From: a virus
Taxonomy: Duplodnaviria > Heunggongvirae > Uroviricota > Caudoviricetes
Direction: 5' to 3' (one strand)
Virus record (IMG/VR): IMGVR_UViG_3300012663_000707
Span: 6,897 to 70,896 of that record
Length of the DNA: 64,000 nucleotides
Part shown: one piece after another, positions 551 to 39,002 of the stretch
How positions within the stretch are numbered: the stretch's first letter is position 1
Layout of the letters: every line of letters begins with the position of its first letter
Translations under genes and position numbers: made by a program
The notes under the pieces: generated by a model
Seen by the model: only the letters and a program-made list of their open reading frames with translations
Told to the model about the DNA's origin: nothing
The model's database searches: none

Positions 551-1024
551 TTACTTCAATGATTTTTCAGTTAATACAATAAACCGCCAACCGCGGTTTG
601 AAGCATAAGCCTTTGCATATCCATATTTATCTCGGTTTCTAACATACTGTTCTGCAAGATATTTATAAGATTCCAATGCCTTCTTTGAATTTTTCATTGG
701 AGGTACTGGTTTCTTAATCTGTGCTTCTGGTTTTATTTCAACTAGAAACTCTTCAACTCCATCTTCAGTTTTAGTTTTCATATAGAAGTCTGGATAATAA
801 GTATGTTCCTTTTGATCTATTGAAGAGATGTATTTAACTTGAACTGGTTCACTAGCCCATGCAACAACTTTTTCTTTAGTGTCACACATAATCATAAACT
901 TACGTTCCCATGAACTTCTATAAATGATAGGTGTTGTACCTATGTACTTCTCTGGATTCTTAGGATTATAATAGCCTTGAATAAATCCACTTTTTGTAGT
1001 AGGTTTAACCTTCTTTATAGACAT
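551..1024 (-). CDS. PD-(D/E)XK-type nuclease-like protein (TnsA/restriction-endonuclease fold candidate)
   Basis: 157 aa; motif YYPDFY...VEIKP fits a PD-x(n)-E-x-K catalytic signature. Tightly packed in the operon with the upstream gene. Confidence 0.4.
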   Translation of the reverse strand: MSIKKVKPTTKSGFIQGYYNPKNPEKYIGTTPIIYRSSWERKFMIMCDTKEKVVAWASEPVQVKYISSIDQKEHTYYPDFYMKTKTEDGVEEFLVEIKPEAQIKKPVPPMKNSKKALESYKYLAEQYVRNRDKYGYAKAYASNRGWRFIVLTEKSLK

Positions 1025-5107: not shown

Positions 5108-6487
5108 TTATAAGTATCTTGATGCCATTCTCTTCCAGTTCGATAGACCTGCTAGTTTAAAACCTGCAGCTTTTACGAATGTTCTCATTGAGATGTCTTT
5201 TGCTTCTTTCATGAATTCAAAGATCTCCTCTTTGTCTGCTATCGGCAATTCTCTTGGCTCTAAATGAGGTAGAAGGATTTTCATACGTTCCATTAATGTA
5301 GCATCATCTGGATCTACGTCAATTAAGATTGATCTTGATCTGATTGCTCCATCTGGATCTGCTACGTCTTTCTTCAAGTTTGAGATGAAGATTACACGAC
5401 CTGCAAATTCAAAATAAGCTGGTACTAAACCTGACTCAAGTGCATTAAATTCTGCTTCTGGATTATCTGCAACATCCAATGGATCAAATACAATTGAAGA
5501 TTTCTTTAACCAACTGATTTTTCTAATCTTCTTAGTATCTAGGGCTGCTTTTAGCATGTTTCTACCATTCTCATCACGGAATACAGAATCACAGTCATCA
5601 AAGATAAGTGTTTTATTTCTGTATTGGTACATTTTCTTGTACATCATGATTGGTGAAACCGCACCAGAAACTATGATATAGTCATCTTCATCGATTAGAC
5701 CTTCGTCTTGCATTGCTCTTTCAACGTTGAAAGTTTTACCAGTACCTGCACGACCAGAGATAAACAATGAGTTGAATGCTCCAGCAGCAACTCTTCTTGA
5801 GATTTGGTAAATATCTTCCATAGTCTCTTCAAAGAATTTAACTTTATCTGTTAAAGTCAATTCATTTTCTTGTTCAGCTTTACCTGGTGCTTCAGTAGCA
5901 CTTAAGTTTCTCTTTAATTTTACGATTGCTCTATATGGAATGCTTAGTTCTTCTGCAATTTGTGTTGCAGGAGTACCAGATGCTAACATAGATTCAACTT
6001 GCTTAAGTTCTGGTTTGCTAAAATTGTATTTGCTTGATTCTTCAACAGCATCATAAGCCTCAGTAACTGAAGCAGCATAACTTTTATCATTTACCATTAA
6101 GATAAATTCATTTACTAATGATACGATTGGGAAATTGTCTGAACTTACACTAAAATCTACTCTACCAGATGCATGATCCGCTGAGTATTCTAATGCACCA
6201 ACTAATCCAGGAACTCCTGGCATTGTTCCAGTTACTCTGAATGCTGCATCACTTTTATTTGAGTAAAAAATAATACCTTCGGTACTAATTCCATCAACAG
6301 TATAATAAACTGTGAATGGGAATTTCTTAAAGTCTAGACTAGTCTTCTTGTTAATAAAACTTGCAATTGCATCTGCAGCTTTATCTAATCTTGGATTGAT
6401 GTCTACTGTTTTAGCTTCGTTAATAAAGCTTTCAAAATCTAAAATTTTCATGTTATTATTGGGTGTTTGTTTTCTTTTATATATCAC
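5108..6487 (-). CDS. AAA+ family ATPase with CTS-like N-terminus
   Basis: Walker A FISGRAGTGKTF, Walker B-like LIFDDCD, and IRSRSILIDVD (arginine finger/sensor). N-terminus reads MKILDFESFINEAKT when read from the internal Met. Confidence 0.6.
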   Translation of the reverse strand: MIYKRKQTPNNNMKILDFESFINEAKTVDINPRLDKAADAIASFINKKTSLDFKKFPFTVYYTVDGISTEGIIFYSNKSDAAFRVTGTMPGVPGLVGALEYSADHASGRVDFSVSSDNFPIVSLVNEFILMVNDKSYAASVTEAYDAVEESSKYNFSKPELKQVESMLASGTPATQIAEELSIPYRAIVKLKRNLSATEAPGKAEQENELTLTDKVKFFEETMEDIYQISRRVAAGAFNSLFISGRAGTGKTFNVERAMQDEGLIDEDDYIIVSGAVSPIMMYKKMYQYRNKTLIFDDCDSVFRDENGRNMLKAALDTKKIRKISWLKKSSIVFDPLDVADNPEAEFNALESGLVPAYFEFAGRVIFISNLKKDVADPDGAIRSRSILIDVDPDDATLMERMKILLPHLEPRELPIADKEEIFEFMKEAKDISMRTFVKAAGFKLAGLSNWKRMASRYL

Positions 6488-6495
6488 CCAAAAAA

Positions 6496-8166
6496 TTACT
6501 CTATATTTTCAATAGTAAACTTAGAAAAGCCGTTTTCACGGTAGATTTGAATCTTTTTATCGAAGATCTCATGTGGCAACACTGTATGGTTAATTACAAA
6601 CGTGTTGATCTTGTTTTCTTTGATCACTTGATTTAAGATTTTAAGCATATTGTAGATACCATCGTGATCTACTGAACTAAGCAATTCATCTAGGAACAAT
6701 AAGTTCAATTGTGGGAATCTCAGTTTCAATATTTTGATAATTGCGATCACAATAATGAAGTCTGCTTTCTTACGTTCTCCAGTTGAAAGTGTAAGTGGAT
6801 TAATATCTTCGCCTAAGTGATTGATGATACAGTTAAACTTCTCATCAAATCTAATATGGAATGGTAAGTGCATGGTTTGACCCATTGCAGCAATATTTGC
6901 ATTTAAACCTGGTAAGATCGTTTTAACTGCAAGATTCTTTACACCATCTTCACCTAAAACTTGTTCCACTATTTCCATGAAATTATAGTCAGATGAGATT
7001 GTATCTTTCTTATTAGATTTTTCAGATTCGCTCTCTTCAAATTCTTCGATAAGAGTTTTAAGGTGATCAAACTGACCATCAGTAGCATCGTTCTTAATTT
7101 TTAGCAACTCATTCTTTAGAGTTTGCATATTGTATTTAATATCGGATGCTCTATCCGTGATCGATTTCTTCTGCTTTTTTAACTCTTCAGCAGCATCATG
7201 GATTGAATCCATCTCAGTTTTATAGATTCTAATCTGATCAGTATCTTCTGCTATCTTTTTAGTAAACTGGTCTTTCTGTTCAATATGCCATTCTGAATCC
7301 AGATGCGTTTCACATGTTGGACATTGACCTGCTTGGTAAAGATCTAGCTTTTTCTTAAGGTGCTCGATCTCATGTTTAAGTGAACTAGCATCATTTCTAA
7401 CATCTTCATAAGATTCTTTCTTAAGTGCAAGTTCAGTATCTAACTGATCCATCTCAGCTTTCATAGACTTAGCAGTATCATTTAATTCTACTAAGCTATT
7501 TTTAAGCTCATCAATTTTATCTTTATTCTTTTGTGAAGATTCTTCTAATAAAGTATTTAATTTATGGCGAACTGATTTAATGGATTCCATGATCTGATTT
7601 AACTCAGATTCATAAGTGTCCATATCCATCTTTAAGATCCTTCTCTCATTCTTAATAAAGGTCTGCATATCATTCAAGATAGAAAAGCCAAACATCTTAT
7701 CGATGATTTGCTTTTTATCAGAAGGTGACATTGTCAAAAAAGATTTAAAATCGTTAATTGACAATATGATGATATTTTTAAATACGTGGTATGGAATCCC
7801 AAACACCTCTTCTTCAAGGTAATCTTGTACTGACTTTTTACCAGCACGATCATATTCAACTCCGTTGATTAACACAGAGAATTTATTAGGCATTAAGCCT
7901 CTTTCGATTTCAACATTAATAGTTCCGCATTGAACTCCGATCTTAACCCAAAGTTCTTTGTTGATTCTATTCGGTAAGTCTGAAAGCTTTACACCTTCTA
8001 CTTTACCATACAATGCATATATAATTGCATTTGCGATAGTGGTTTTACCATCGCCATTTTTGCCTAACGTTAAGAAAAGTTCAGATTTGTCCTGATCGAA
8101 TGTTAGTTTTTGTTTTTGATTCCCGTATGATGCGAAATTCTTGAACTCTATGTAGTCTATTCTCAT
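6496..8166 (-). CDS. sbcC: SbcC/Rad50-family recombination ATPase (T4 gp46-like)
   Basis: Walker A GKNGDGKTT, coiled-coil middle with CPTC zinc hook, ABC signature LSTGERKK, Walker B LLFLDE, H-loop INHT. Confidence 0.85.
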   Translation of the reverse strand: MRIDYIEFKNFASYGNQKQKLTFDQDKSELFLTLGKNGDGKTTIANAIIYALYGKVEGVKLSDLPNRINKELWVKIGVQCGTINVEIERGLMPNKFSVLINGVEYDRAGKKSVQDYLEEEVFGIPYHVFKNIIILSINDFKSFLTMSPSDKKQIIDKMFGFSILNDMQTFIKNERRILKMDMDTYESELNQIMESIKSVRHKLNTLLEESSQKNKDKIDELKNSLVELNDTAKSMKAEMDQLDTELALKKESYEDVRNDASSLKHEIEHLKKKLDLYQAGQCPTCETHLDSEWHIEQKDQFTKKIAEDTDQIRIYKTEMDSIHDAAEELKKQKKSITDRASDIKYNMQTLKNELLKIKNDATDGQFDHLKTLIEEFEESESEKSNKKDTISSDYNFMEIVEQVLGEDGVKNLAVKTILPGLNANIAAMGQTMHLPFHIRFDEKFNCIINHLGEDINPLTLSTGERKKADFIIVIAIIKILKLRFPQLNLLFLDELLSSVDHDGIYNMLKILNQVIKENKINTFVINHTVLPHEIFDKKIQIYRENGFSKFTIENIE

Positions 8167-13042: not shown

Positions 13043-14251
13043 TTAAAAAAGTGCTGATGCGTAAATAAGATTAGTGTCTAATGTTTGAAGACCAATTGCT
13101 GAAAGAACTCTATTCAAAGGATCGATCATTGATTTCTCGAATTGAATGTCATAATCTACAGGTGGTGCAAATTCATAAGGATGTTCGTTAGGTAGATATG
13201 CATACATCTCTGATATTGGAGACTTGCAATGATAGATCTTTAACTTTTCACCGTTATTAATTACCTTATATTTGGTCTTGTATTTTGTGTTGTTATTCAA
13301 CAAGTAATTGTAGTAACCTGCTGCTTTTACGTTTGCTGGACATTTAAGTCCAATTTGAAGTTCGATCTGATCATCCACAATATACTTATCAATGTTGTTT
13401 GTTCTCTTATTAAAAGAGATGTCATCGATATTTGCCATGTGGAATTCTTTCTTAGTCTCTTTCATGAAGACAACCAACTTCTCTAAATCTGTTGCTGTTG
13501 GTTTAAAGCCGCTTGTAAAAATAAGCTTAAGTGCAGCTACAAGTTTCTCACGAACAAACTTTGGTGTTGAAGATTGAATGGTATCATATCCGATTGTCTT
13601 AACCTTCTTTAAAGGTGGATGACGGTCTGTTGTTTCAAGTTTGTCATCCCATGCAATATTTTGGATATACTTTTTCTTTGCAAGCCAGATACCGTTATAT
13701 GCAATAGTCTCAAGTTCAAATACCAAGAAGTTGTCTGTGTTTCTTTTGTCAGCATAACGCTCCATGGATTTAACAATGTATTCCTTTAGTCTAAAGTGAT
13801 ACAAAGCTAAGATGAATACATCAATGCTCATCTTCTTCTCTTCGTCTAGCCAAACAATTGATTCATACATATCTTGAAACTGAACGTAACAAGAATCTGT
13901 GTCAATGTAAATTACCGCAGGCTTTTCTACTTTACCTTTAACTTTAAGTCCAAACTGTTTATGTACAAGTTCGTCTTTATGCCAAAAGTCATTTACATAT
14001 TTGTTTAAGACTGCTTCGGAATAAAGGATTGCATTCTTACCTTGCTTGGTAATAGATTCTGCAATATTAATGTTAAAGAAGTGGAACCATTTATTACCGA
14101 AAGCTCCGTAGATTGAATTTAGAGTCAGTTTAACTGCTTGTTCATACGCAGTGTACTTAGCAGAAAGCTGCTCATAGTGTTCTATGAGCAGCTCCGCTTC
14201 TTCTTTTGAAAGTTGATCGACTGGTTTATGTTCTAACTCTGTAATATTCAT
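13043..14251 (-). CDS. family-B DNA polymerase, C-terminal fragment (motif B to thumb)
   Basis: Motif B KLTLNSIYGAFGN (KxxxNSxYG) and motif C IYIDTDSCYV (YxDTDS). Begins immediately downstream of the clamp-like gene. Confidence 0.8.
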   Translation of the reverse strand: MNITELEHKPVDQLSKEEAELLIEHYEQLSAKYTAYEQAVKLTLNSIYGAFGNKWFHFFNINIAESITKQGKNAILYSEAVLNKYVNDFWHKDELVHKQFGLKVKGKVEKPAVIYIDTDSCYVQFQDMYESIVWLDEEKKMSIDVFILALYHFRLKEYIVKSMERYADKRNTDNFLVFELETIAYNGIWLAKKKYIQNIAWDDKLETTDRHPPLKKVKTIGYDTIQSSTPKFVREKLVAALKLIFTSGFKPTATDLEKLVVFMKETKKEFHMANIDDISFNKRTNNIDKYIVDDQIELQIGLKCPANVKAAGYYNYLLNNNTKYKTKYKVINNGEKLKIYHCKSPISEMYAYLPNEHPYEFAPPVDYDIQFEKSMIDPLNRVLSAIGLQTLDTNLIYASALF

Positions 14252-19260: not shown

Positions 19261-19344
19261 TAACCTCGATCGAGCAATTCAATAAAAATACTAGCAGCGC
19301 TGCTTGTATTCTATATATCAACGTCTCGATCGAAATTGAGGTTA
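19261..19344 (-). promoter_or_regulatory. structured intergenic element: nested palindromes between the polymerase N-fragment and nrdB
   Basis: taacctcgatcgag (19261-19274) pairs with ctcgatcgaaattgaggtta (19325-19344). A perfect 12-nt palindrome agcagcgctgct sits at the centre (19294-19305). Confidence 0.35.
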
Positions 19345-20745
19345 TGATCTGAATTTTTTCTTTAATTCATCTGCTTTTGTGTAGTAAGAATAAGATGTTT
19401 TCTTGTAATCTTTACGTTGAGCATATAGGTCACTTAAGATTAATTTTAACATTGAATCTTCTTTCTTATATACTACGCCATTTTCACAAACAATAATACT
19501 GTCATCTTTTCTTCTGGCTTCGATCTCTCTTTCTGGAATGATCTCAACATATGAATCGGGCGAGATATTAAATTGTCTCATGATCGAAGGATATAGAGAT
19601 GCAAAGTCAAACGCAGATACTCCAGAGTAATAACCGACAATTGGTTCTTTTACAAAGGCACCTTCATATTTGGTTTCTTTCTTACTATCTTCTTTATCAA
19701 ATTCAACTGCAATCTTCATATTAGAATCTACTAATTTTCTAGCAATTAATGATTCTGTTACTGCCACTGGAGATGCTGCTTTATATAGAGGCATTTTAGT
19801 GATCGTAGCTAATGTAAGTAGTACTTCCATTGATCTTAGTTTACGGTCAATATAGTAAACCAACACGGAATCGACTACGTTATAATATACAAATTTTGTA
19901 AAGTTATCACGATATAGATCTTGTAGAGATCCAGTATATTTGATCTTGCTTACATCCAATACTTGACCAGATACAAAGTCTAATGAGCTGGATTCTTTAA
20001 CAGCAACACTACGGTCATATTTGTCATAAAGTTGCATGTAATCTAGGATTCCCATATGTAATGGTCTACTGTCTGCTTTATCTAAAGCTCCAGTGATTGC
20101 AACTTCAGTAAGATCGATTTGTAGTCTTTTACATCTATTTACAATATACTGCCAGTCATAGTTGATGAAATTCCAACCAGTCATCATTGGAAACTTAGGT
20201 AAGAACTTATGCAAGAATGTATACAACATATTGTACTCATCCTTAAATTTGTAATACGTAAATGTCCAATCTTGATCTAGGTCTTTGAAGTGTGCGTTTG
20301 TATCATCTTCGATCTTTTTAATATCTGCAGCAGATAGATCTTCTAGTCCAAGTACAATTGCTTTACGTTCTGGTGTGATAATTGAGAAGGTTAAAATCCT
20401 ACTCTTAGCTTCTTCTGGCTTTGGAAAACCATCTACGATTTCTGTCTCAATATCGACATAATACGTTCTAGGCATATTGAACTCATAGATCTCATTACGA
20501 TCTTCTTCAGGCAATGAATCCATAAAATACAATAGACTGAACTTGTTAAAAGATCTAGCTCTATTTTTCTTAATGGATCGACCATCCCAGTTTTTAAAAC
20601 GTTGGTCTTTATACTTGTCATTATCTTCTGCAATTACCCAATTTTGGAATTCTTTTACTGGGTATCTTTTGAAGGCAACTTTACCTTCACGATCGTAATA
20701 AGAAACGATCAGTTCTTTTTCGGTTTGTTCAATGTCTAATAGCAT
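19342..20745 (-). CDS. family-B DNA polymerase, N-terminal fragment (3'-5' exonuclease domain through motif A)
   Basis: Exo I YYVDIETEI, an Exo II-like YNVVDS block, and polymerase motif A FDFASLYPSI. Ends in a stop after motif A; motif B resumes in 13043..14251. Confidence 0.8.
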   Translation of the reverse strand: MLLDIEQTEKELIVSYYDREGKVAFKRYPVKEFQNWVIAEDNDKYKDQRFKNWDGRSIKKNRARSFNKFSLLYFMDSLPEEDRNEIYEFNMPRTYYVDIETEIVDGFPKPEEAKSRILTFSIITPERKAIVLGLEDLSAADIKKIEDDTNAHFKDLDQDWTFTYYKFKDEYNMLYTFLHKFLPKFPMMTGWNFINYDWQYIVNRCKRLQIDLTEVAITGALDKADSRPLHMGILDYMQLYDKYDRSVAVKESSSLDFVSGQVLDVSKIKYTGSLQDLYRDNFTKFVYYNVVDSVLVYYIDRKLRSMEVLLTLATITKMPLYKAASPVAVTESLIARKLVDSNMKIAVEFDKEDSKKETKYEGAFVKEPIVGYYSGVSAFDFASLYPSIMRQFNISPDSYVEIIPEREIEARRKDDSIIVCENGVVYKKEDSMLKLILSDLYAQRKDYKKTSYSYYTKADELKKKFRS

Positions 20746-22160: not shown

Positions 22161-23367
22161 ATAATTTTGCTACTTTGTTTTTATACTCTTCAACGCTTAC
22201 TCCAGCTTCTACTAAAATTTTATCATCCGATGGGTGGTTTGCCATCCCATTAAATGTTTTTATTAGACCTAGATCCAACATTGCTTTTTGTCTACCGTAT
22301 GGATGGTCTAGAATTGTTGAACTGTTCCAGATTTTATCCATATCAATATGGTTGTAATTAGCACCTGGTTTTAAATAATTCTCAATCCAACGAATAAAGT
22401 CACATGCAACGTCCTCAGCATTATAAGGTAGACTTCCAGTGTCCTCATAGATTCTATTCATTACTGCATCTAAGAAGTCTGTACTTCCTTTACCTTTGCC
22501 ATTCAATGGATCTGCTAAGTAACCAATACATTCCGTTGCGTTTGTTCCATAATAGAACATACTGTCTCTATGAATAAATTCAGGAAACCAATCAGCAACA
22601 TCTGCAATTACTGCAGCATACTGGAATCTATAAACTCTAAGTCCATTTGCTTGATTCCAAGCAAACATCCAATCGCCAAGTTCACGAAGTGTTTTCTTTT
22701 CACCTTGCTGCAAATAAGTTGCCATCTCTCTTGCAAGTCTAGGTGCATATTCGCAAAGATAGTAATCGCCACCTCTTTTATAAGTGTAGTCTTGGTTTGT
22801 AAAACCGGACATGCCGATGAATAAATCATCAGCGTGAGTTGGTTGAGGTGGCTTTGGAAATGCTGGAAACTGATAACCTACCGAAGTATAAAATGGTTTA
22901 TCATAACCTTTGATCACTTCACACATTTGCTCGATTGTATCTGCTTCATGTAAGTGAAATAGAATTGTGTTATGGTATCCAGATGGTTTGGTTGCATAGT
23001 TAATAGCAGAACCAGTAACTCGATGTAGAATAAATAGGTAAAGCCAATCTGCTAGATCTAACGTATTTCTTTTACCGGTCCAGTTATTTGCAACCGTATT
23101 TCGTTGTGGATGAATCTTACCGGCTTTCATATGTTCCCAATAAGGGTGTTCTTCTGACCAACCGTAAAAAATGTCATTTACTATTTGACTGAAACCCGCA
23201 TATTTACGTTCCACCACATCGTATAAGTGAATGTGTTCCATTAGATCATCATTCATACCACTTTCTTCATGTGGTACCATACCTAAGTTAGAAAGTTCTT
23301 GCTGTTTTAAAGCAAGATCAAAATACCTTAGGAATTCGTCGTAATATTTTGTTGTTTTAATCTCCAT
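22150..23367 (-). CDS. hypothetical protein (405 aa)
   Basis: Long ORF overlapping its neighbours by a few nt (operon packing); no confident motif. Confidence 0.5.
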   Translation of the reverse strand: MEIKTTKYYDEFLRYFDLALKQQELSNLGMVPHEESGMNDDLMEHIHLYDVVERKYAGFSQIVNDIFYGWSEEHPYWEHMKAGKIHPQRNTVANNWTGKRNTLDLADWLYLFILHRVTGSAINYATKPSGYHNTILFHLHEADTIEQMCEVIKGYDKPFYTSVGYQFPAFPKPPQPTHADDLFIGMSGFTNQDYTYKRGGDYYLCEYAPRLAREMATYLQQGEKKTLRELGDWMFAWNQANGLRVYRFQYAAVIADVADWFPEFIHRDSMFYYGTNATECIGYLADPLNGKGKGSTDFLDAVMNRIYEDTGSLPYNAEDVACDFIRWIENYLKPGANYNHIDMDKIWNSSTILDHPYGRQKAMLDLGLIKTFNGMANHPSDDKILVEAGVSVEEYKNKVAKLYVA

Positions 23368-25701: not shown

Positions 25702-25971
25702 TTATTTATTGATTTGATTATGTATCGGGTTTTTACAATTACCTTTATGAGATCCCCATTGAGTTTGTCCAATTCCACCTACAATATATTCACAACCTTC
25801 AAGAGTATAAACTCTATAATTTTGGTCAAAATACTTTGAACTATTGTCTAGTTCCATTTTATGCGGATTTGATTGAGTCGAAACTTGTACGTTGCCTTCG
25901 CAACTTGTAACCATAAAGGCTACAAGTGCTGCAAAGATCAATAAGAATAGAGTTATATTTTTTCTGTTCAT
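25702..25971 (-). CDS. small secreted lipoprotein (89 aa)
   Basis: Signal peptide with lipobox LVAFMVTSC; cysteine-containing mature part. Confidence 0.5.
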   Translation of the reverse strand: MNRKNITLFLLIFAALVAFMVTSCEGNVQVSTQSNPHKMELDNSSKYFDQNYRVYTLEGCEYIVGGIGQTQWGSHKGNCKNPIHNQINK

Positions 25972-27470
25972 TTAGCAGATTTTAAACGTTCTCTGATTTC
26001 AGTTAATGTTGTTTGGTTTTCAAAGAAACCATTTCTATAAATAGTCTGTAATTCACCTTTTGCCTCATCTTCCCATGAACATTGATCCAGTAAAATTAAT
26101 AATCCAGCGGAGTTATATACACTCAACAATCCAGTTGCTGATTTCTTTGTCCCATCATCTGTAATTGGGTCTTTAAAGATTTGTCTACCTTCGCCATTAA
26201 CATCAACATACGTTGCTTTCATTGCGAAACCAAATGTGTCTCTGGTATTGTATTGGTATGTGAATGAACCTACACCTAAAACGATGTTTGTACTTGCAAA
26301 TCCTTTTGCTTCTAAACGCTTACAGATTTCTTCAGCTCTTTCAATTGTAATTGAGTCTCCGTAGATTGCTCCGATATGAGAGTCAAGAACTTTGTAACCT
26401 TGTTCGTTGATAGTTCCTCCGAAAACATCCCAAAGTAATTCAATAACACCTTTCTTTTCAGGACTATCAGAATTAGTGATTACATTATCATCGCCAAATG
26501 TTGCTTTATTTGATTGAATCCATGATGAATTATCATAACCACAAATAATATCGACCGGATCACCAGAGTCAGGTCTAATAACTACTTTACCATCACGAGC
26601 TAAAATCTCTTCTTTCAAAGTAACTACGTGTTCGGTACAAACTTTCCATAAGTCCCAAGTATCTGATACGATTGAAAGAATTCCTGTTGGATATGTTTCC
26701 ATCAAGTTTCTAAATGTTCCAACCTCATCTTCTTTAGATCCAGCGCACATAACTGAATGTTCAGTTGCATTCACACTTCCACAAACAGTATCTGTTGCAC
26801 CATAAAATTTACGTGCTCCATAAATTGTTGGTAAACTATCTGAACCTAAGAAACTTGTTAAGTGACCAAGACCTGAAGAGATTACTGCCTCCACTGAATC
26901 CATACCTCTCATTGAGAAATCATGTCCTTGCCAATCAATAAACCATCCGCGCTCAGCATCAGTTTTTTCTTGCCATTTGGTCAATACCTTACGGTAAGTA
27001 TGGGCAATAGTTGCAGAAGTCATTGGTTTCCATAACAAGTTTGAAAGGATAGTTTCCAAGTAATTTGTTACCCAATAGAAATCTGGATGTGTATTATAGA
27101 TTGTTAATACAGGAACTTTGATAGGAACTAATGTACCTTCTGGAAGAGCTTTAACCGCGATTGGCAAATAACCTAGATCATGTAGGGCTTCAAAGTGACT
27201 AACATCATAATCAGTTCCAAGGTACATTGATAACTCACGTTTCATTTCTCCACAAACCTCATCTTTTGGTTTGCTAAAGAAATCCTTCTCAAAAGATTCG
27301 TGAATTTGCTTCATTACCATTTGTTGTCCAAACGATACTAATTGGTCGCAACCCTTTGGTGCATACTTGTTACTTCTTGGTGTGAAGTTTGAATAAACCA
27401 ACGTAGTTCCTTTTGGATATTGTTGGTGGTGTCCTGTTTTGTACCCGTCTGTTAAAAATAATGGATTCAT
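25968..27470 (-). CDS. nadV: nicotinamide phosphoribosyltransferase family (NadV/NAMPT-like; could equally be the Namat type)
   Basis: N-terminus MNPLFLTDGYKTGHHQQYP is typical of NAMPT; 500 aa. Confidence 0.85.
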   Translation of the reverse strand: MNPLFLTDGYKTGHHQQYPKGTTLVYSNFTPRSNKYAPKGCDQLVSFGQQMVMKQIHESFEKDFFSKPKDEVCGEMKRELSMYLGTDYDVSHFEALHDLGYLPIAVKALPEGTLVPIKVPVLTIYNTHPDFYWVTNYLETILSNLLWKPMTSATIAHTYRKVLTKWQEKTDAERGWFIDWQGHDFSMRGMDSVEAVISSGLGHLTSFLGSDSLPTIYGARKFYGATDTVCGSVNATEHSVMCAGSKEDEVGTFRNLMETYPTGILSIVSDTWDLWKVCTEHVVTLKEEILARDGKVVIRPDSGDPVDIICGYDNSSWIQSNKATFGDDNVITNSDSPEKKGVIELLWDVFGGTINEQGYKVLDSHIGAIYGDSITIERAEEICKRLEAKGFASTNIVLGVGSFTYQYNTRDTFGFAMKATYVDVNGEGRQIFKDPITDDGTKKSATGLLSVYNSAGLLILLDQCSWEDEAKGELQTIYRNGFFENQTTLTEIRERLKSAK

Positions 27471-27490: not shown

Positions 27491-27565
27491 GATATGTAAA
27501 TATAATCAATTTATTTTGATCCCGAAAACATTTTTCAATTTATTTTCAAAAAGTTATTAACAATC
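27491..27565 (-). repeat. intergenic cassette copy E5 (hairpin replaced by a duplicated AAAATAAATTGA segment)
   Basis: Shares the TTGTTAATAACTTTTTGAAAATAA and ATTATATTTACA boxes with E1-E4. Confidence 0.6.
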
Positions 27566-28015
27566 TACAAGATTCGCCAAAACACTTTTTACCATGCCAA
27601 TCTCTGCACGACCTTGGTATCTTTTATTAAATTCACCAATAGTTTTACCTTGCAAAGCCTGTGGATTTGTAATAGTAACAGACAAATCCTGTAGAATTTC
27701 CTTTAAAGCCAATACAATCTCATCAGCTGTCATTTGAGCTGGCATATATCTTCTAAGAACTGCACTTTCATCTGCCTCTTTTTTCGCCAATTCTGGTCGA
27801 TTTGCAACATCATACATTTTTTGGGCATCCTCTCTGGTCTTGATCGCTTTATTAACGATTTTAATAATCTCAGCATCGGTTGCAACCCAAGTTCCATTGT
27901 TTTTTTCAGCAACCTGGATTGCTGCTTTAATACTACCTAATGCATCCTTTGCATTTGTGTCTTTTGCTTTGTATGCAGCAATATAATCTGCATCTATTCT
28001 TTCTTTAATTGTCAT
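27557..28015 (-). CDS. GatB/YqeY domain protein
   Basis: 152 aa helical protein whose pattern (IKERIDADYIAAYKAKD...LGSIKAAIQ...) is typical of YqeY-like proteins. Confidence 0.65.
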   Translation of the reverse strand: MTIKERIDADYIAAYKAKDTNAKDALGSIKAAIQVAEKNNGTWVATDAEIIKIVNKAIKTREDAQKMYDVANRPELAKKEADESAVLRRYMPAQMTADEIVLALKEILQDLSVTITNPQALQGKTIGEFNKRYQGRAEIGMVKSVLANLVDC

Positions 28016-28021
28016 CTTTCT

Positions 28022-28237
28022 TTATTTTATGTTTTCTAATGGGTATGCGTTTAAAATGAAATTTTTATCATTAAGATGGTCCCAAGTACCTTCAGGTAAT
28101 TCATATTCTGCTTGAGAATCTACAGCCTTTAATGCTTGTTCAACATGGTACCTTGCAAATAATACACCAAATTCTTTCCAGTCGAATGCGTATTTACCGT
28201 TTTCACTGATATGGTCTAAAAAATCTTCTGCTGTCAT
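28022..28237 (-). CDS. hypothetical small protein (71 aa)
   Basis: ORF in the operon. Confidence 0.35.
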   Translation of the reverse strand: MTAEDFLDHISENGKYAFDWKEFGVLFARYHVEQALKAVDSQAEYELPEGTWDHLNDKNFILNAYPLENIK

Positions 28238-28243
28238 CTTTCT

Positions 28244-28450
28244 TTAGTTTTTTCTGATTCCTGTTACCATAACGTATTTAAACGTTCCATCCTTTTTAAA
28301 CATATGCTGAATAAATGTTACATCATACGTTTTAAATCCATTGTCAAATTCCATTGTTATTTGTTCATCGATTAATGGTTTTTCAACTTCACAAATAAAA
28401 TCACTTTCACAGACTCCACCATTCATTAAAACAAATCTACACCTTGTCAT
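28244..28450 (-). CDS. hypothetical small protein (68 aa)
   Basis: ORF in the operon, overlapping the Thg1-like gene end. Confidence 0.35.
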   Translation of the reverse strand: MTRCRFVLMNGGVCESDFICEVEKPLIDEQITMEFDNGFKTYDVTFIQHMFKKDGTFKYVMVTGIRKN

Positions 28451-29378
28451 AATCTATATTTTTAGATGGGTTTAATAGTCCTTTAATAAAAAATCTGTCT
28501 TGTGTAAATGTTGGAGTTTCAATAACTTTCCATTTGTTTCGCTTTACAATTTGATTTGGATCGATCATATGAGTTTTACCATCATTAACAAATTTTGTTG
28601 TAGTTGATCCAATCGTAACAACTTCTACTTTACCAATCACAGCACCTCTTTTCTTACGAAAATCATAATCATTCCAGTTGATTCCCTTTTGAAAAATCAT
28701 CTCTTGCATCTGATCTGTCTTTACACCATTTAATTCTTTTGGACTATAAAGACTTTGTGCAACTGAAGAGATACTGTTTCGTACAGCGTCTTGTTGTCTC
28801 CAAATAAAATAGTTTTCAACTTCATCAATGAATGGAATTTGAAAAGCTCTGGCATCAAATTGAGCCATTTTGAATTTTTGAATTTCATTCTCAGTTAATA
28901 AGTTTTCAACATAGTCTCCCATGATGTCATTACATGCTCTTATTAATCTTAAACGATTAAATTCAGAAGTTGCCATAGAGGCAGCAACACTTACCATTTT
29001 CTGTAAGTTATTGTCAAACCATGCATGAGTTCCTAATTCATCAAAGTCTGTTAGGACTAAACTAATCTCATCTGATTGTACGTAACCAAACTTGGCACCT
29101 TGGATATTTTTACATAGATATGCAGTAGTTGCATTCATGTCTTCAATAAGTCCTTGGTCAAATGGTCGTTCTAATCCTCGAGTGTAAGTGTGGAATGCTT
29201 TTCCGTCAATACGGATAATTGTGAATGTTCTCCTTGGGAGCTTGATTCTAGTTCTATCTTCGTAGAACTCTTTCATACGGTCGCCTAATGCGTCTTTCAT
29301 AATATATGTTATTGTGCAACCTTCGTTAGTTGGATGCTGGTTATGTTCTTTATACTTAGAACATTTGTTTTGTTTCAA
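28437..29378 (-). CDS. Thg1-like protein (tRNA-His guanylyltransferase / 3'-5' nucleotidyltransferase family)
   Basis: IIRIDGKAFHTYTRGLERPFD, GYVQSDEISLVL and the downstream block match Thg1 motifs VVRIDGKKFH..., ..GESDEYSF... Probable true start is the internal MKDALG at about 29300, which clears the adjacent tRNA-like gene. Confidence 0.75.
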   Translation of the reverse strand: MKQNKCSKYKEHNQHPTNEGCTITYIMKDALGDRMKEFYEDRTRIKLPRRTFTIIRIDGKAFHTYTRGLERPFDQGLIEDMNATTAYLCKNIQGAKFGYVQSDEISLVLTDFDELGTHAWFDNNLQKMVSVAASMATSEFNRLRLIRACNDIMGDYVENLLTENEIQKFKMAQFDARAFQIPFIDEVENYFIWRQQDAVRNSISSVAQSLYSPKELNGVKTDQMQEMIFQKGINWNDYDFRKKRGAVIGKVEVVTIGSTTTKFVNDGKTHMIDPNQIVKRNKWKVIETPTFTQDRFFIKGLLNPSKNIDYDKV

Positions 29379-29380
29379 AT

Positions 29381-29505
29381 TGTAGTCAGGACAGGATTCG
29401 AACCTGTGATAGTCTCCATCAGCACATTGATAAAGCAGAGACTCCGTAGCAGTTGGGGAACTTACTCAATGTTTCGGGGCGTGTTTCCATCTCGCCACCT
29501 GACTA
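29381..29505 (-). tRNA. tRNA-like gene, atypically long (about 125 nt)
   Basis: Minus strand has T-arm ACAGG-TTCGAAT-CCTGT, a 3' acceptor strand CCTGACT+A, and a perfectly complementary 5' end TAGTCAGG. The D-arm-like GGCG/CGCC is present. The body is too long for a canonical tRNA, suggesting an insertion or intron, or a tRNA-like stable RNA. Confidence 0.4.
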
Positions 29506-29661
29506 TATTGACTTTAAGAGCACGTTGTTCTTTGCATCTCTTTGATATTCTCCGCGGTTAGTCAAACCGGATATAAATTTGTTATATCAGCAGTCCCATG
29601 CAGGTAATCACCCTGCTTCTCATCATATTAGGCATACTATTCGGTGATGAACCGAACCGTG

Positions 29662-29741
29662 TCGTCAGGGCCGGACTCGAACCGGATAAGCAACCATTTA
29701 ACTGGATTCGGGGACCAATCCCTCATTACGCCCACCTGACT
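29662..29741 (-). tRNA. tRNA-like gene (80 nt) with GGTTCGAGTCC T-loop region
   Basis: Minus strand AGTCAGGTGGGCG...CCGGTTCGAGTCCGGCCCTGACGA. Six of seven acceptor pairs are Watson-Crick, and the 5' end is identical to that of the first tRNA-like gene. The anticodon arm could not be assigned by eye. Confidence 0.45.
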
Positions 29742-29870
29742 ATTTTAGCTGTTTATTCCGCTTCTTTTTTTTCAGTTACTTCAACTTCAATTTCCTTTAA
29801 AACATAAGTAGATCCTAAGATTACATCATGTTCAAGTACTACTACTTCAATTGTTTCTTTCTTGCTCATA

Positions 29871-30785
29871 TTAAAATACATTAAATTGTGTTACTAAATT
29901 AGGTTTTGTTATACTTGATCCTTTACTATTTGTAGTAGAAGCTTTATCTCCGGATACTTTAGATTCAATATCTTCATAAGAATTAGTGCAGAATATGCCA
30001 TCAAATAATTCATTAAGATCATGGAATCCACTACTAAAAATACCGTGAGTGACCACCAAATAAATTTTAGCAGTTGGGCGTCCTTCTTTAATCGCCTTTG
30101 CCAATTCAACGAATGTTCTACCTCCGTCGCAAATATCATCCACGATTACATATTTAATATCATCATGTTGATTTAATACTGGGATCTCAGTTCTAAGAAT
30201 ATTTCCGGTTCTCATATCCCTTACTTTATTTGCAGTAATGATATTGTTAATGCCGAATTTCTTAGCAACATCAAAGATCTTTTTGTAGGCTCCAGCATCT
30301 GGACTTACTAAGCAGATGCGTGATTGAGCATCGTTTTTGTTGTCTATAGCGGTAAGAGCATATTTGACTAATAGATGATTGTCCACTTTGTCATAGTTGT
30401 TTAGGCATGCCTCTAATACATCTGAGTGCGGATCTAGAGTTAAGACTGTACTTAAGTTTAATGAATTGATGATTGGGCAAATAACTTGCTTTAAGTAGTT
30501 AACTCCGCCATCAACAAATTTACGGTCTGAACGAGCTCCTAAGAAATAAGGAACATAAAGTGCAATCTCTTTGTTTGGTACGATGTTACGTATCGCTTGC
30601 ACTGCGCAGATAAGTAATTCTACGTCTCCGAATGAATTCAAACGAGTGCTTAATTTAACTGCATCGTCATTATTCATCAAAATACTCCAACTTGTAAGAT
30701 CTACAGTTTGTTGTCCGTCAGGAAACTTACTGATCTTATACTTGATTTGAGATTTTTCTTGATCGATTAAATTTAATGTTATCAT
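29871..30785 (-). CDS. prs: ribose-phosphate pyrophosphokinase family (Prs; possibly ADP-ribose pyrophosphokinase Adps-type)
   Basis: PRPP-binding loop YVIVDDICDGGRTF; 304 aa; a two-domain PRTase-like layout. Confidence 0.8.
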   Translation of the reverse strand: MITLNLIDQEKSQIKYKISKFPDGQQTVDLTSWSILMNNDDAVKLSTRLNSFGDVELLICAVQAIRNIVPNKEIALYVPYFLGARSDRKFVDGGVNYLKQVICPIINSLNLSTVLTLDPHSDVLEACLNNYDKVDNHLLVKYALTAIDNKNDAQSRICLVSPDAGAYKKIFDVAKKFGINNIITANKVRDMRTGNILRTEIPVLNQHDDIKYVIVDDICDGGRTFVELAKAIKEGRPTAKIYLVVTHGIFSSGFHDLNELFDGIFCTNSYEDIESKVSGDKASTTNSKGSSITKPNLVTQFNVF

Positions 30786-35755: not shown

Positions 35756-35763
35756 TATTTATA
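35756..35763 (-). promoter_or_regulatory. TATAAATA late-promoter-like motif upstream of 34100..35746
   Basis: Plus tatttata at 35756-35763; minus strand reads TATATAAATAAAAAGTAAAATG. Confidence 0.3.
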
Positions 35764-37597
35764 TATTTTTAAGAAATTCATTGAATGTTAGGAAGTTACT
35801 CTCGTTAGTAGCCATTGACTGCTGAAGTTTATCCTTAAGCTCAGTATACATACCATGAATTGCTCTAGGTGTTAATTTTTTAAATGTCTTTTCGTCATCT
35901 TCTAACATTGCATTTCTAACTTGAGTAGCTGAAACATCATTGTCACCTCTTGTAATTTCAAATAAACCAAAGTCTGGTCTTACATTTAAATCATTTCTAT
36001 ACTCTTCTTTGTCTACTTGATATGAATAAGTCTTCATTCTATCAGTACCGGTACCCCATAAAACTGGTTCGTACTTGGGTCTAAGTTCATTAAACATCAA
36101 ATCAATACCAGCGCTTGGCAAGATAAATACATCTTGAATCGGGTAAGTACTCTTTAACGCTTCAAGCATTCTTACTTGTGTATCTTCATCATAAGGTCTA
36201 GAGAAAGCATCTTCTTTCTTTTTAGTCTTAGATTTAATTAAGAAGATTACAACTGGATAGCCATTTTGTTTCTGCATGTTCTCAATAACTTTGGCATGTC
36301 CTAATGTAAATGGTTGGAATCTACCAACAAACATATTTACCGGCATTTTACCATGGTCAGTTGTATTAACTTTTAATGCTTCCAAGATTGGACTAGTTTG
36401 CACTGATAAGTTTTGGTGTTTTAAATAAGATTGGAAATTCAATACGTCTCCTTCTTTTATTGTACCCATAACGATATTTTCTATTTCGTTCACAATATCA
36501 TTAATTTGAGCCATTAGATCAGCATTGATAATCGTGGTTTCTTTAGTTCTAATTTTTCTAAAAGAACCTAAGATAATTTTAAAAAGTTCAGCAACAACTT
36601 TATTTTGTACTAATGCAACCGTCTTTTCATTTTGAATATACTTAGTGTTCAATTCAAAACCTGGAATTGTTGCAAAGTCTGCTGAGTCGAAAGAAGCACC
36701 AATATACTTGGTAGCATTATCTTCCATATATGCATTAAAGATGATCGACATTAATTCTAAATATCTTTCATCTGTTTTTTCTGCTTTTAGTTCTACCTTA
36801 CTTAGATCATATTGAGCCATATACTCTACTAGATCTAAGATTGAGATTTGATACATGTCCGATGGAGCTCTATCCACTGGTGCTTTTTTATCAAATCTTT
36901 CTAGTTTAAAACTTTTAACGGCTTTACCATCAAAGAAATTTAAGATTAGGCAGTCGATTGGTTTATCAAGATCTCTATTTAACGCAGTGTTGTTTAGACC
37001 TTTATTAAAAATATTGTAAACATATCTTGTAAATGATCGATCATTAAAGTAAGATGTAAAATCGCCATCAGACATACTTAAGAGATCCGTTAACGCATCC
37101 TTTTGGTCCGACTGTAAGATTCCATTGTAAATAACTTGAGGTCGCTGTACTTCAAGATAATCAGCCCATTCGTTTAAAACTTTAGGATCTCTAATTACCT
37201 TTTTAACTTGAGTTAGATCTACAGGATTCAATACTTGAATATGAGTTAAAACCAAATGATTCTTTGGCAACATATCATATTCGATGTCTACTGTCTTTGG
37301 ATCTATCATATAGTCAAATCCAAATTTCCAGTCTACTGGCATCTTTTCTCTAACGTCGGCAGATAATGTGCCGAAATAATTAATAGCATTCTCGTAATAT
37401 TTTACGATCGTGCGATCAACTTTATCCATTTCACTTTTTTGACCACTTTTAAAATAGTCAAAGCCTTCCGATGTTTTTTTAACATGGAAAGAAGATGCTT
37501 GTATCTTTTCAGTAACAACGCATGGAACCGTTAATAAGTCCGTGAACTCATTAGTATTAGCCGATTCAAAATATGTTTTTAAGTTTTGTAGAGCCAT
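35759..37597 (-). CDS. large protein with C-terminal NMNAT-type (cytidylyltransferase-like) nucleotidyltransferase domain
   Basis: Class-I nucleotidyltransferase motifs GRFQPFTLGH (HxGH) and VSATQVRN (ISSTxxR) in the last 200 aa. The roughly 400-aa N-terminal part is unassigned. The C-terminus ends ...NFLTFNEFLKNI. Confidence 0.55.
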   Translation of the reverse strand: MALQNLKTYFESANTNEFTDLLTVPCVVTEKIQASSFHVKKTSEGFDYFKSGQKSEMDKVDRTIVKYYENAINYFGTLSADVREKMPVDWKFGFDYMIDPKTVDIEYDMLPKNHLVLTHIQVLNPVDLTQVKKVIRDPKVLNEWADYLEVQRPQVIYNGILQSDQKDALTDLLSMSDGDFTSYFNDRSFTRYVYNIFNKGLNNTALNRDLDKPIDCLILNFFDGKAVKSFKLERFDKKAPVDRAPSDMYQISILDLVEYMAQYDLSKVELKAEKTDERYLELMSIIFNAYMEDNATKYIGASFDSADFATIPGFELNTKYIQNEKTVALVQNKVVAELFKIILGSFRKIRTKETTIINADLMAQINDIVNEIENIVMGTIKEGDVLNFQSYLKHQNLSVQTSPILEALKVNTTDHGKMPVNMFVGRFQPFTLGHAKVIENMQKQNGYPVVIFLIKSKTKKKEDAFSRPYDEDTQVRMLEALKSTYPIQDVFILPSAGIDLMFNELRPKYEPVLWGTGTDRMKTYSYQVDKEEYRNDLNVRPDFGLFEITRGDNDVSATQVRNAMLEDDEKTFKKLTPRAIHGMYTELKDKLQQSMATNESNFLTFNEFLKNI

Positions 37598-37601
37598 TCT
37601 T

Positions 37602-39002
37602 TTATCTACCGTATTTAATGATACCCATTAGTTGGTTAATTGCAGCAAAGGTACCTGTTAATTTGTAAGTATGTCCTTTGTATCTGAATACTAGGCCTTC
37701 TGTCGGAATGATGGATTGTACACCACCGATTCTATCCAATCTAGCAAGTTCAGATTCTACTTTATCTATCTGTTTTTGGTCACCGCCTTTTCTAACGTTT
37801 TCAGCTGCATTTTTAATCTCGTTATGCAACCTTTGCATTTCTTTATCTGGTGACAAAGCTAAAAAGTTAGAAGCATTTTTAAGGATGATCGAACCTAGTT
37901 CTAAGAAAATATCTTCAAAAGGTCTAATGTTTTCTTTATACTTCTTTTTTGCATCTTCTTTATCAAATTGCTTGATTGCAGCTTCTTGTTCTTTGCTTAA
38001 AGACTTTCCTAAATCTCTTAGATTCAAAGTCTTCTTGTCATCGTAAGCCCATCTTAACATTAAACCTTCTTTAATGTCTTGTGGCATTTCTCCAAAGATA
38101 GCATCGATTTGTTCTCTCCACCACATTTCGTGGTATTTAGAAACTGGATCTGAATCCATTAAACCATATTGGTCTCTTAATGCTTCGATCTTTTTGATAA
38201 ATTTATCTTTGTTAGTATCAAAGTCGATGTCTTTTCTTAGTTGAATGATTTGTGGGGGAATTATTGTAAATTTAGAACCTACGTTTGCATTCAATTCTTT
38301 TAATACTTTAGCGATCTCTGACGCAGCTTTAGGCTGTTCATTAATGATATTACCTTCGCCATCAGTTTCTTTAATACCATGGAACTGGATCACATCTACA
38401 TCATAATGAATTACATTAGGATTAAGTGAATAGATCAACTCCATGTTCATAAAGTTCTTTCCATTTTGGAAAGTGCTATCTTGTACACCTTTTGGAAGTC
38501 TAATTAATAGACTTGCCAAATCCGCTGCTGCGAATTGAAAAGTATCTTGTACTAATTTGCTAGGGTGTCCTTCAAACTTAGATTGGAAATCAGCAAGAGA
38601 CATCGGTAATTTCATATCACCTTTATTTCTTGCAAATTTAACTTCACCATCTTGGATAGTAGCAAATACATTTTGACCATCTGTTTTTTCAGTCGGTTGC
38701 TCTTCAAAATTAAGTTCACCTTGTAAACCTGATTCTGCCATAGCTTTTAAATCGCCGAAAGTCAAATCCTTATTATCAAATGGGTGTGACATGTGTCCTG
38801 CTGCACCACCTTCTAATACAAGTTGGTTAAACATTTTAGCTTCATATGTTTGTACAAAGCCTTCTGTTAAAAATTGATCTAAGTTAAGTAATTTCATTTC
38901 TTTATAATCTATTAAAGACCCAGTTGCCCAGGTCTTTTGTTTTGTTTGTTTTATTAAGCTTCTTGTGAAATCATTGCTTGAATAACATTGCTTGAGATCC
39001 AA
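37602..39002 (-). CDS. hypothetical protein with KxDG nucleotidyltransferase-like motif (ligase-like candidate), CTS-like MKLLNLDQFLTEG near the N-terminus
   Basis: EKTDGQNVFATIQDGEVKF resembles ligase/capping motif I (KxDG); other ligase motifs were not confidently located. Confidence 0.3.
   Translation of the reverse strand: MDLKQCYSSNDFTRSLIKQTKQKTWATGSLIDYKEMKLLNLDQFLTEGFVQTYEAKMFNQLVLEGGAAGHMSHPFDNKDLTFGDLKAMAESGLQGELNFEEQPTEKTDGQNVFATIQDGEVKFARNKGDMKLPMSLADFQSKFEGHPSKLVQDTFQFAAADLASLLIRLPKGVQDSTFQNGKNFMNMELIYSLNPNVIHYDVDVIQFHGIKETDGEGNIINEQPKAASEIAKVLKELNANVGSKFTIIPPQIIQLRKDIDFDTNKDKFIKKIEALRDQYGLMDSDPVSKYHEMWWREQIDAIFGEMPQDIKEGLMLRWAYDDKKTLNLRDLGKSLSKEQEAAIKQFDKEDAKKKYKENIRPFEDIFLELGSIILKNASNFLALSPDKEMQRLHNEIKNAAENVRKGGDQKQIDKVESELARLDRIGGVQSIIPTEGLVFRYKGHTYKLTGTFAAINQLMGIIKYGR

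Follow-up and report, generated by a model that had tools for sequence, protein, structure and literature searches.

We analysed a stretch of 64,000 nucleotides (nt) from an uncultured T4-like phage (IMG/VR record IMGVR_UViG_3300012663_000707, positions 6,897 to 70,896; hereafter the window), in which a gene for a Thg1-like protein (TLP) lies beside two tRNA-shaped elements that we call A and B. Our results showed that both elements belong to a family of phage RNAs that keep the acceptor, D and T portions of a tRNA and have no anticodon arm, and that TLP genes and these RNAs are seldom found together in other loci. We consider it probable that the TLP is a general tRNA 5′-end enzyme, that the elements are separate, anticodon-less tRNA mimics, and that the two are neighbours in this lineage by chance.

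Two tRNA-like elements precede the TLP gene

Read from the sequence of the minus strand in the 5′ to 3′ direction, the region consists of a phosphoribosyl pyrophosphate (PRPP) synthetase-like gene (Prs), an open reading frame (ORF) of 42 amino acids (aa), element A, a 157-nt spacer, element B and the TLP gene. The initial annotation had described two tRNA-like genes directly downstream of a Thg1-family gene. We recovered two tRNA-shaped elements on the same strand as the TLP gene and close to where they had been placed, but in the direction of transcription they lie upstream (5′) of it. Nor did they read as tRNA genes, as ARAGORN predicted none in the whole window and Rfam returned none at the gathering threshold. 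The stop codon of the 42-aa ORF lies 12 nt 5′ of element A, and no terminator was predicted between the two. Since the gap is so short, the elements are probably co-transcribed with this ORF. Both elements start with AGUCAGGUGG and end with GGUUCGA(A/G)UCC…CCUGAC.

Element B is a member of what we named the type B RNAs. Its acceptor strand AGUCAGG (29498..29504) is fully paired with CCUGACU (29384..29390), with A73 at position 29383; the T arm, ACAGG-UUCGAAU-CCUGU, occupies 29391..29407, and the D arm resembles that of tRNA-Leu with a D loop 1 nt longer than the consensus. An insert of ~64-69 nt replaces the anticodon and variable arms. When compared with the Rfam tRNA model under a permissive threshold the element scored 28.4 bits (cutoff 29; E = 8.5e-4), with the acceptor, D and T arms aligned and a 64-nt insertion at the site of the anticodon arm. 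The scaffold is identical to the type B family consensus: the AGUCAGG acceptor, the tRNA-Leu-like D arm, the ACAGGUUCGAAUCCUGU T arm, the CCUGACU-A-C end and the variable insert are all present. In this copy the insert has no significant structure (z = -0.2).

We collected 181 unique type B or type B-like sequences. The acceptor AGUCAGG/CCUGACU is near-invariant among them, A73 is found in 89% and C74 in 98%, and the T arm is the same ACAGG-UUCGAAU-CCUGU. The D arm reads UGGCGGAAUGGUAGACGC, which we take to be equal to that of bacterial tRNA-Leu. Most changes in the acceptor stem amount to G•U wobbles, compensatory changes are seen in the D stem (GCG/CGC versus GUG/CAC), and the nucleotides of the tertiary contacts are kept, namely the D-loop GG and the T-loop UUCGAAU. 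Acceptor non-pairs were counted in 9/181 sequences at pair 1, 2/181 at pair 2 and 4/181 at pair 3, and systematic mismatching of the type seen in the mitochondrial 5′ editing of Acanthamoeba and Dictyostelium was not found among the 181 elements. The inserts, on the other hand, range from 24 to 116 nt (median 43), are wholly different between copies and have mild structure overall (mean z = -0.72). Their divergence outpaces that of the protein encoded next to them: the TLPs of the window and of a related locus, L001, are 78% identical, while the type B inserts of the two can barely be aligned. Strongly structured inserts were ruled out by the mean z value of the set and by that of the window's own insert.

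A canonical anticodon stem-loop (5-base-pair (bp) stem, 7-nt loop, U33, R37) was present at the expected site in only one of 169 type B elements. In the same test shuffled inserts yielded 1.8±1.1, and the stem-loop was present in 230 of the 283 canonical tRNAs of the same phages. The shortest type B members (74-76 nt) carry a GNRA or other tetraloop hairpin that fills the anticodon-arm site, so there is no room for an intron. We also considered intron-containing tRNAs and ruled them out, as anticodon stem-loops do not exceed chance and the shortest members have this hairpin.

Element A is of a second kind, type A, and has no match in Rfam at E≤10. It scored 89.4 bits against our covariance model R1, which counts element A itself among its building sequences. 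It consists of an acceptor stem of 7 bp that contains an A1•G72 mismatch, a helix that we call H2, the sequence GUAAUGAG, a D-like hairpin (GGGA-UUGG-UCCC), a short helix H4 and a T arm (CCGG-UUCGAGU-CCGG); the anticodon arm is absent. The element fits every invariant column of our type A alignment (A1), and G72 opposite A1 is its sole departure from the consensus. In the 67 unique sequences of the type A set the core runs in the order acceptor (7 bp), H2, GUAAUGAG (with invariant GUAAUG(A/C)G), D-like hairpin, GA(A/G)UCC, H4, GGUUGC and T arm. H2 is formed by the strand right after the acceptor paired with the strand right before the T arm, the D-like hairpin has 4 bp and a GG loop of 3-4 nt, and the consensus, like element A, lacks an anticodon arm.

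The type A structure was evaluated on 47 sequences. Standard pairs fill 95.2% of the cells and 15 of the 21 pairs show changes on both sides, which none of 500 shuffles reached; when the partners were slid by 1-3 columns only 25-52% of the cells paired. Covariation, examined with RNAalifold as well, supports this structure. The compensatory changes are located in the acceptor, H2, D-like and T helices. Other lineages have very different acceptor stems (GGUUGGG/CCCAACC, GGGAGUG/CACUCCC or GGCUGAC/GUCAGCC), and the T stem has 4-5 bp, with an 8/4 arrangement in some subgroups. In one of these (L147, L158, L190, L224, L245 and L289) we observed an apparent 8-bp acceptor (UAGUCAGG/CCUGACUA) with a T stem of 3-4 bp; it retains 12 stacked pairs, like the 8/4 'allo-tRNA' geometry (Mukai et al., PMC5389517).

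As they have no anticodon, the elements cannot decode. The suggestion made in the initial annotation that they are odd tRNAs for decoding did not hold, as the anticodon stem-loop is absent from both.

The elements are widespread in phages and travel with tRNA genes

A search of IMG/VR with the type B pattern AGTCAGGTGG-N40-70-GGTTCGARTCC returned at least 120 contigs, and a loose type A pattern at least another 120. In 185,579 species genomes of bacteria and archaea, a longer type B pattern had six matches, all in contigs of metagenome-assembled genomes (MAGs), of which five are ≤7.2 kb and one is 25.4 kb; three were binned as Bacteroidota and three in other phyla. We therefore rejected a reading of the scaffold as an attachment site with host copies, for which these six mostly short MAG contigs were the only candidates. 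No close relative of the RNA region was found among GenBank or cultured phages.

Among 230 loci examined, 159 contain a total of 266 elements, with up to 11 copies in a single locus (L198), and canonical tRNAs occur in 70 of the 159 as well. From an element, the closest canonical tRNA is 350 nt away (median), and the two are on the same strand for all 145 scorable elements. Position -1 is T in 76% of the elements and in 68% of the canonical tRNAs of the same phages, and in both the acceptor is followed by N73-C74 and an A-rich trailer. The matching flanks argue for the same transcription units and for the same RNase P and 3′-end processing.

ARAGORN calls some family copies as tRNAs of arbitrary isotype. 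Against the Rfam tRNA model, the family elements score 28-48 bits compared with 50-77 for their canonical neighbours. At the gathering threshold, Rfam returned on 12 array-bearing loci only low-scoring tRNA and one real tmRNA. The latter is a full tmRNA (L135 5724..6218; RF00023, 68.5 bits) on a contig that also holds family elements and ~25 tRNAs. We clustered 2056 ORFs flanking the elements and found no dominant or enriched family that could be a protein partner; terminase headed the clusters (19 loci), and endonucleases too were common.

Rfam 15 does not contain the RNA family, nor did we find a description of it in the searched literature. A catalogue of viral structured RNAs, whose motifs overlap ARAGORN tRNA calls only sometimes, may include it (PMC10690425). 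The family is large, with members in more than 200 IMG/VR contigs, specific to phages and apparently without earlier description. Because it is missing from Rfam 15 and ARAGORN mis-calls its members as random isotypes, it contaminates phage tRNA inventories.

Separately, we noted two 'tRNA-Undet' genes in the cultured Bacteroidota jumbo phage pT24 of Tenacibaculum (NC_049383.1 192032..192477; L207 5792..5870 and 6159..6237). They have normal acceptor, D and T arms and a hairpin, GGGUAUAUUACCC, in place of the anticodon arm. Their scaffold differs from that of the window's RNA family, and the principle is the same.

The enzyme is a Thg1-like protein related to that of Bacillus thuringiensis

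The presence of a Thg1-family ORF, as initially annotated, was confirmed. In its longest form (28437..29378, minus strand) it extends back to a TTG at 29378 and contains the motifs RIDGKAFH and SDEISL. It matches Pfam Thg1 (PF04446; E = 2.1e-28, 99.3 bits against a cutoff of 29.2, profile positions 2-130 of 130) and PHROG 4717, 'tRNA-His guanylyltransferase' (E = 8.5e-85). Translation probably starts at the ATG at 29300, given that the homologues align from that Met and that the 78 nt upstream are conserved at the nucleotide level in spite of a stop in L006, where an in-frame TAG just upstream of the TLP start closes the longer reading frame.

The best solved structure for the protein is the TLP of Bacillus thuringiensis (BtTLP, 4KGK), which phmmer matched at E = 4e-58 over residues 3-247 with ~50% identity. 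IRIDGKAFH and QSDEISL fall in the same alignment columns as the corresponding BtTLP motifs. In Thg1 and BtTLP structures the Asp of RIDG and the Asp-Glu of SDEIS are the catalytic, metal-binding carboxylates. The similarity to the Candida, yeast and human Thg1 proteins is far weaker (E = 1e-10 to 2e-4), and the HINNLYN motif is not there: CHINNLYN of the Candida protein (3WBZ) is aligned to AVRNSISS. Since the match to 4KGK is so much stronger and the HINNLYN position reads RNSISS, the protein is, judged by its sequence, a bacterial-type TLP; for the same reasons the database label 'tRNA-His guanylyltransferase' is probably too specific. Phage Thg1-like proteins had been regarded as rarely reported, but tblastn found a TLP in 162 GenBank phage records, mostly annotated as tRNA-His guanylyltransferase, and a comparative study of jumbo phages lists Thg1 among the phage RNA-repair genes (PMC7824862).

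The TLP gene is preceded by a non-coding leader whose nucleotide sequence is conserved among the window, L001, L003, L008, L013, L015 and L029. A box in this leader, TATAAAGA at 29347..29354, resembles the T4 late promoter TATAAATA, of which L013 has an exact copy, and is probably a late-type promoter of the TLP gene's own. The leader also contains a hairpin, GCAUCC-N10-GGUUGC (29316..29337), with a weak predicted fold (-4.5 kcal/mol, z = -0.5). Its stem is invariant, which places the hairpin beyond a covariation test.

TLP genes and elements are seldom neighbours

We examined 80 TLP loci from IMG/VR and 231 element loci, the latter with up to ~7 kb on either side. Besides the window, L001 and the mutually identical L003-L005 are the only TLP loci in which elements adjoin the TLP gene, and a type A copy stands beside it in the window only. 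Among the element loci, a TLP gene is found within ~7 kb of an element in one of the 231. Even within the window's TLP clade most loci have no element within 3 kb. A dedicated repair module of TLP and RNAs, as had been proposed, is thus not supported as a conserved unit.

What is conserved in this clade, in ~14 loci, is the order Prs–[variable]–TLP–(68-aa ORF)–YqeY–NAMPT. The 68-aa ORF is kept beside the TLP gene in L002, L006, L007 and L010-L012. YqeY, which lies downstream of the TLP gene in ~14 related loci, is the most conserved neighbour of the clade, and its domain is presumably akin to the tRNA-binding tail domain of GatB. This kinship, together with the conserved linkage, makes YqeY a more consistent candidate partner of the TLP than the RNAs.

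In lineages more distantly related to the window, the TLP gene is located within arrays of canonical tRNAs: ten flank it in L027, where a tRNA-His(GTG) starts 27 nt after the TLP stop codon; two tRNA-Thr genes lie directly upstream of it in L044 and a tRNA-Arg downstream in L075. In cultured Bacillus and Staphylococcus phages, however, no tRNA gene is located near that of the TLP. A general link of phage TLP genes with tRNA genes is plausible, and judging by these gene orders it would be recurrent but loose, given the arrays in L027, L044 and L075 and none in the cultured phages.

Neighbouring genes and other features of the window

The coordinates of the features are collected in Table 1. The TLP gene is surrounded by NAD-salvage genes, namely those for NAMPT, PRPP synthetase and a 612-aa protein with a cytidylyltransferase-like, NMNAT-type domain, a set that we take to be reminiscent of phage NAD+ reconstitution pathways. 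The two small ORFs between the TLP and YqeY genes have no family match in Pfam or PHROGs. The other genes of the window are T4-like replication and recombination genes (gp32, UvsW, UvsX, gp41, gp46/47, a split family B polymerase and ribonucleotide reductase (RNR)), and on the basis of UvsX the nearest sequenced phage is an uncultured huge phage (62% identity). We found no polynucleotide kinase/phosphatase and no CCA-adding enzyme in the 64-kb window.

Table 1. Features of the window discussed in the text, ordered by position.
Feature	Position	Strand	Basis
ORF with TnsA-like endonuclease N-terminal domain	551..1024	-	Pfam, E = 3.5e-18
Family B DNA polymerase, C-terminal polymerase part	13043..14251	-	
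Family B DNA polymerase, exonuclease and N-terminal part	19342..20745	-	
NAMPT gene	25968..27470	-	
YqeY-like protein	27557..28015	-	Pfam YqeY, E = 2.2e-28
Two small ORFs, 71 aa and 68 aa, between the TLP and YqeY genes	28022..28450	-	
TLP gene, 287 aa from ATG 29300 (probable start)	28437..29300	-	Pfam, PHROG and 4KGK matches
Conserved non-coding TLP leader	29316..29354	-	Nucleotide-level conservation across loci
Element B, type B tRNA-like RNA	29383..29504	-	Sub-threshold Rfam tRNA match, family scaffold
Spacer between the elements, 157 nt	29505..29661	-	No Rfam match; fold z = -0.11 versus shuffled
Element A, type A tRNA-like RNA	29662..29741	-	Covariance model R1, type A alignment
PRPP synthetase-like gene and 42-aa ORF, as a block	29753..30785	-	Sequence reading
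PRPP synthetase-like gene	29871..30785	-	Pfam Pribosyltran and Pribosyl_synth
ORF of 201 aa	30868..31473	-	PHROG 14949
612-aa NMNAT-type protein	35759..37597	-	
'Ligase-like' ORF, conserved hypothetical, 431 aa	37602..38897	-	

A 'ligase-like' protein at 37602..39002 had also been pointed out in the initial annotation. The ORF, as we delimit it, has no match in Pfam, PHROGs, NCBIfam or PDB sequences, and its KTDG and EGLVFRYKG-x3-KLTG motifs were recognised by eye only. In Foldseek the top four matches were T4 Rnl1 and Rnl2, all of them non-significant (E = 0.05-1.3, TM <0.2) and obtained with an AF2 model of pLDDT 65. There are ~2000 homologues, all unnamed, with at least 68% identity among the matches listed. 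The protein may be a very divergent ligase.

Three further observations concern other genes. The family B DNA polymerase is encoded in two ORFs ~5 kb apart, between which sit the RNR subunit genes and a 2-hydroxyacid dehydrogenase gene. A TnsA-like endonuclease N-terminal domain is encoded in this T4-like phage. Finally, the 201-aa ORF has WIVDID- and TKNGFH-like motifs and 6644 homologues, with at least 83% identity among the matches listed; homologues lie 2-5 kb from type A elements in L208, L232, L251, L271, L306 and L308. Its structure model is of low confidence, and a fold search with it gave no significant match.

Discussion

The initial assignment of the enzyme stands, and BtTLP, its closest characterised relative, restores 5′-truncated tRNAs in vitro through templated 3′-5′ addition (PMC3061083); a conserved module with the elements is not supported, with one TLP gene among 231 element loci. 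By analogy, the phage enzyme is expected to have the chemistry of BtTLP, that is, templated 3′-5′ addition and repair of tRNA 5′ ends. It would activate a 5′-monophosphate RNA end with ATP or GTP and then add nucleotides in the 3′-5′ direction by Watson-Crick pairing, using the 3′ strand of the acceptor stem as the template. The outcome would be the restoration of 5′-truncated tRNAs or the addition of the -1 base of tRNA-His, and the most likely role of the TLP would be the general upkeep of tRNA 5′ ends during infection. The elements are most likely transcribed with the upstream genes and would then be excised by RNase P and 3′ processing enzymes, like the phage's canonical tRNAs. We suggest that their function resides in the invariant 'top half' made up of the acceptor, T and D portions, so that they would work as tRNA mimics, for example as decoys or amino-acid acceptors, and not as adaptors. 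They may be substrates of the TLP, as any acceptor stem could be, and a dedicated pairing with it is not supported.

Some of our observations weigh against chance neighbourhood. The adjacency of TLP gene and elements has been kept in three lineages whose TLPs are ~78% identical, and this could reflect function and not history. The AUCC-N10-GGUUGC of the TLP leader recurs in the H4/H2 region of type A. In the window, the motif ATCC-N5-12-GGTTGC occurs five times against 0.19 expected, and none of 100 shuffles reached five, although three of the five copies lie inside ORFs (22977..22995, plus strand; 23090..23111, minus strand; 60072..60093, plus strand) and have no further likeness to the RNA elements. 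That leader and type A have this motif in common hints at one RNA-binding partner for both. Moreover, the 64-kb window is part of a probably much larger genome, and our tRNA count for this phage, tRNA-His included, covers the window only.

A more specific role for the enzyme, in which it restores or adds G-1 on the tRNA-His of phage or host and the neighbouring RNAs are irrelevant, is possible but, in our judgement, somewhat unlikely. It agrees with the database annotation and with the tRNA-His(GTG) gene of L027 that begins just past the TLP stop codon. It also draws on ten phage tRNA-His genes from related and element-bearing loci, in which G at -1 is encoded in all nine whose acceptor stem is readable. 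Three of those nine (L097, L119 and L158) put G-1 opposite A73; bacterial tRNA-His normally has C73. Since a G-1 cannot form a Watson-Crick pair with A73, it may be lost at RNase P cleavage, and it could then require re-addition by a Thg1-type enzyme. However, ARAGORN found neither a tRNA-His nor any other canonical tRNA in the window, the protein is far closer to BtTLP than to Thg1 and reads RNSISS at the HINNLYN position, and in the cultured Bacillus and Staphylococcus phages the TLP gene sits beside no tRNA. BtTLP, besides, is poor at untemplated G-1 addition opposite A73 and prefers the repair of truncated ends (PMC3061083).

We regard as unlikely a dedicated module in which the TLP, perhaps with YqeY, matures or maintains the 5′ ends of the elements while the leader mimics type A for feedback. 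In such a module the enzyme might place a templated U-1 across from A73, or replace nucleotide 1 where it is mismatched or has been lost. Its appeal comes from the elements that stand right beside the TLP gene in the window, L001 and L003-L005, the linkage of the YqeY gene, the A1•G72 mismatch of element A, the motif common to the leader and type A, and the frequency of A73, which coincides with T at -1 in 123 of the 181 elements; BtTLP favours a templated U-1 opposite A73 ~40-fold over G-1 (PMC3061083). The distribution of the elements speaks against it: besides the near absence of TLP genes from element loci and of elements from same-clade TLP loci, many element contigs are apparently from small phages, where a terminase gene is close by and the stretch examined contains no TLP. 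T at -1 is similarly common before the canonical tRNAs, and the known preference of RNase P for U(-1) fits it as well. Pair 1:72 is mismatched in just nine of the 181 elements, and the leader hairpin is thermodynamically weak with an invariant stem.

An extended version of this idea, which we rate as distinctly improbable, would have the elements act in counter-defence. They would be processed, CCA-tailed 'top-half' decoys, produced from numerous gene copies, that soak up host toxins or nucleases directed at acceptor ends, or they would be charged for non-ribosomal use, as their tRNA-Leu-like scaffold and A73 might allow, in either case sparing decoding; in the window's lineage the TLP, possibly with YqeY, would be their dedicated 5′-end partner, self-regulated via the leader hairpin as a partial mimic of type A. 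If true, the elements would be the first natural substrate class for a bacterial-type TLP.

That the elements have no function as RNA, being decayed tRNA pseudogenes or DNA repeats such as recombination sites or the ends of mobile elements, seems to us very improbable. Both are rejected by tRNA predictors, element A has its 1:72 mismatch, the TLP-adjacent element of L003 has lost the T loop, homing-endonuclease genes are frequent near the elements, and between close relatives the elements are present or absent as discrete units. Yet the scaffold has been conserved over hundreds of contigs while the inserts diverged beyond alignment, the type A acceptor, H2, D-like and T helices show compensatory changes, and substitutions keep G•U pairing and retain the GG of the D loop and the UUCGAAU of the T loop. 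The agreement in strand with canonical tRNAs (145/145) and the tRNA-like processing context point in the same direction.

A conserved genomic partner would be valuable as a pointer to the physiological substrates of bacterial-type TLPs; in this case the partnership is weak. As for the RNA family, its binding partners could reveal a new layer of the conflict between phage and host over tRNAs.

Comparison with known systems

The phage TLP itself belongs to a well-known type of enzyme. With BtTLP (PDB 4KGK/4KGM; PMC3061083, PMC3701042) it has the family, the subfamily and the RIDG and SDEIS motifs in common, and it differs by an ~18-aa insertion and a ~40-aa C-terminal extension; unlike BtTLP, it is encoded by a phage, within a block of NAD-salvage and YqeY genes. 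With eukaryotic Thg1 (3WBZ, 3OTB) it has in common the Pfam domain and the catalytic carboxylates, at the weak similarity given above.

The elements resemble canonical phage tRNAs (RF00005) in the 7-bp acceptor, the UUCGAAU T arm, the GG-containing D arm or hairpin, U at -1 and N73-C74, and they lie within tRNA arrays on the same strand. They are unlike them in having no anticodon stem-loop and in using one scaffold in many copies whose inserts (24-116 nt) are unrelated to one another. The tRNA-like domain of tmRNA, including the message-less mitochondrial form, has the same topology as type A: a GG-containing segment stands in for the D loop, and an anticodon is absent. In type A, however, pair 3:70 is U-A, so that the G3:U70 alanine identity pair is missing, there is no coding segment, and the window elements have no match to the Rfam tmRNA family.

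YrlA, the bacterial Y RNA-like partner of Ro60/Rsr, ends in a Ro-binding helix and has its acceptor-like stem closed by a loop, whereas the elements end at the acceptor stem with RNase P-type processing signals. Like the elements, YrlA is non-coding and non-decoding, has tRNA-like T and D arms and is found in phages (PMC4201824, PMC7824862). No Ro/TROVE gene was found in the window and no Rfam match to YrlA in the elements.

Other viral RNAs, such as the T4 stable RNAs 1 and 2 (rnaC and rnaD) and the tRNA-miRNA encoded RNAs of murine gammaherpesvirus 68, are also non-decoding, tRNA-like or linked to tRNAs, encoded within or next to tRNA clusters and processed by tRNA enzymes. They have no known sequence kinship with the elements, which carry the foreign RNA inside the fold and not at its end. 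In this respect the elements are like the engineered 'tRNA scaffold' for recombinant RNA, in which a foreign RNA is embedded within a tRNA fold, and the family would provide natural counterparts both of this tool and of the viral tRNA-linked small RNAs.

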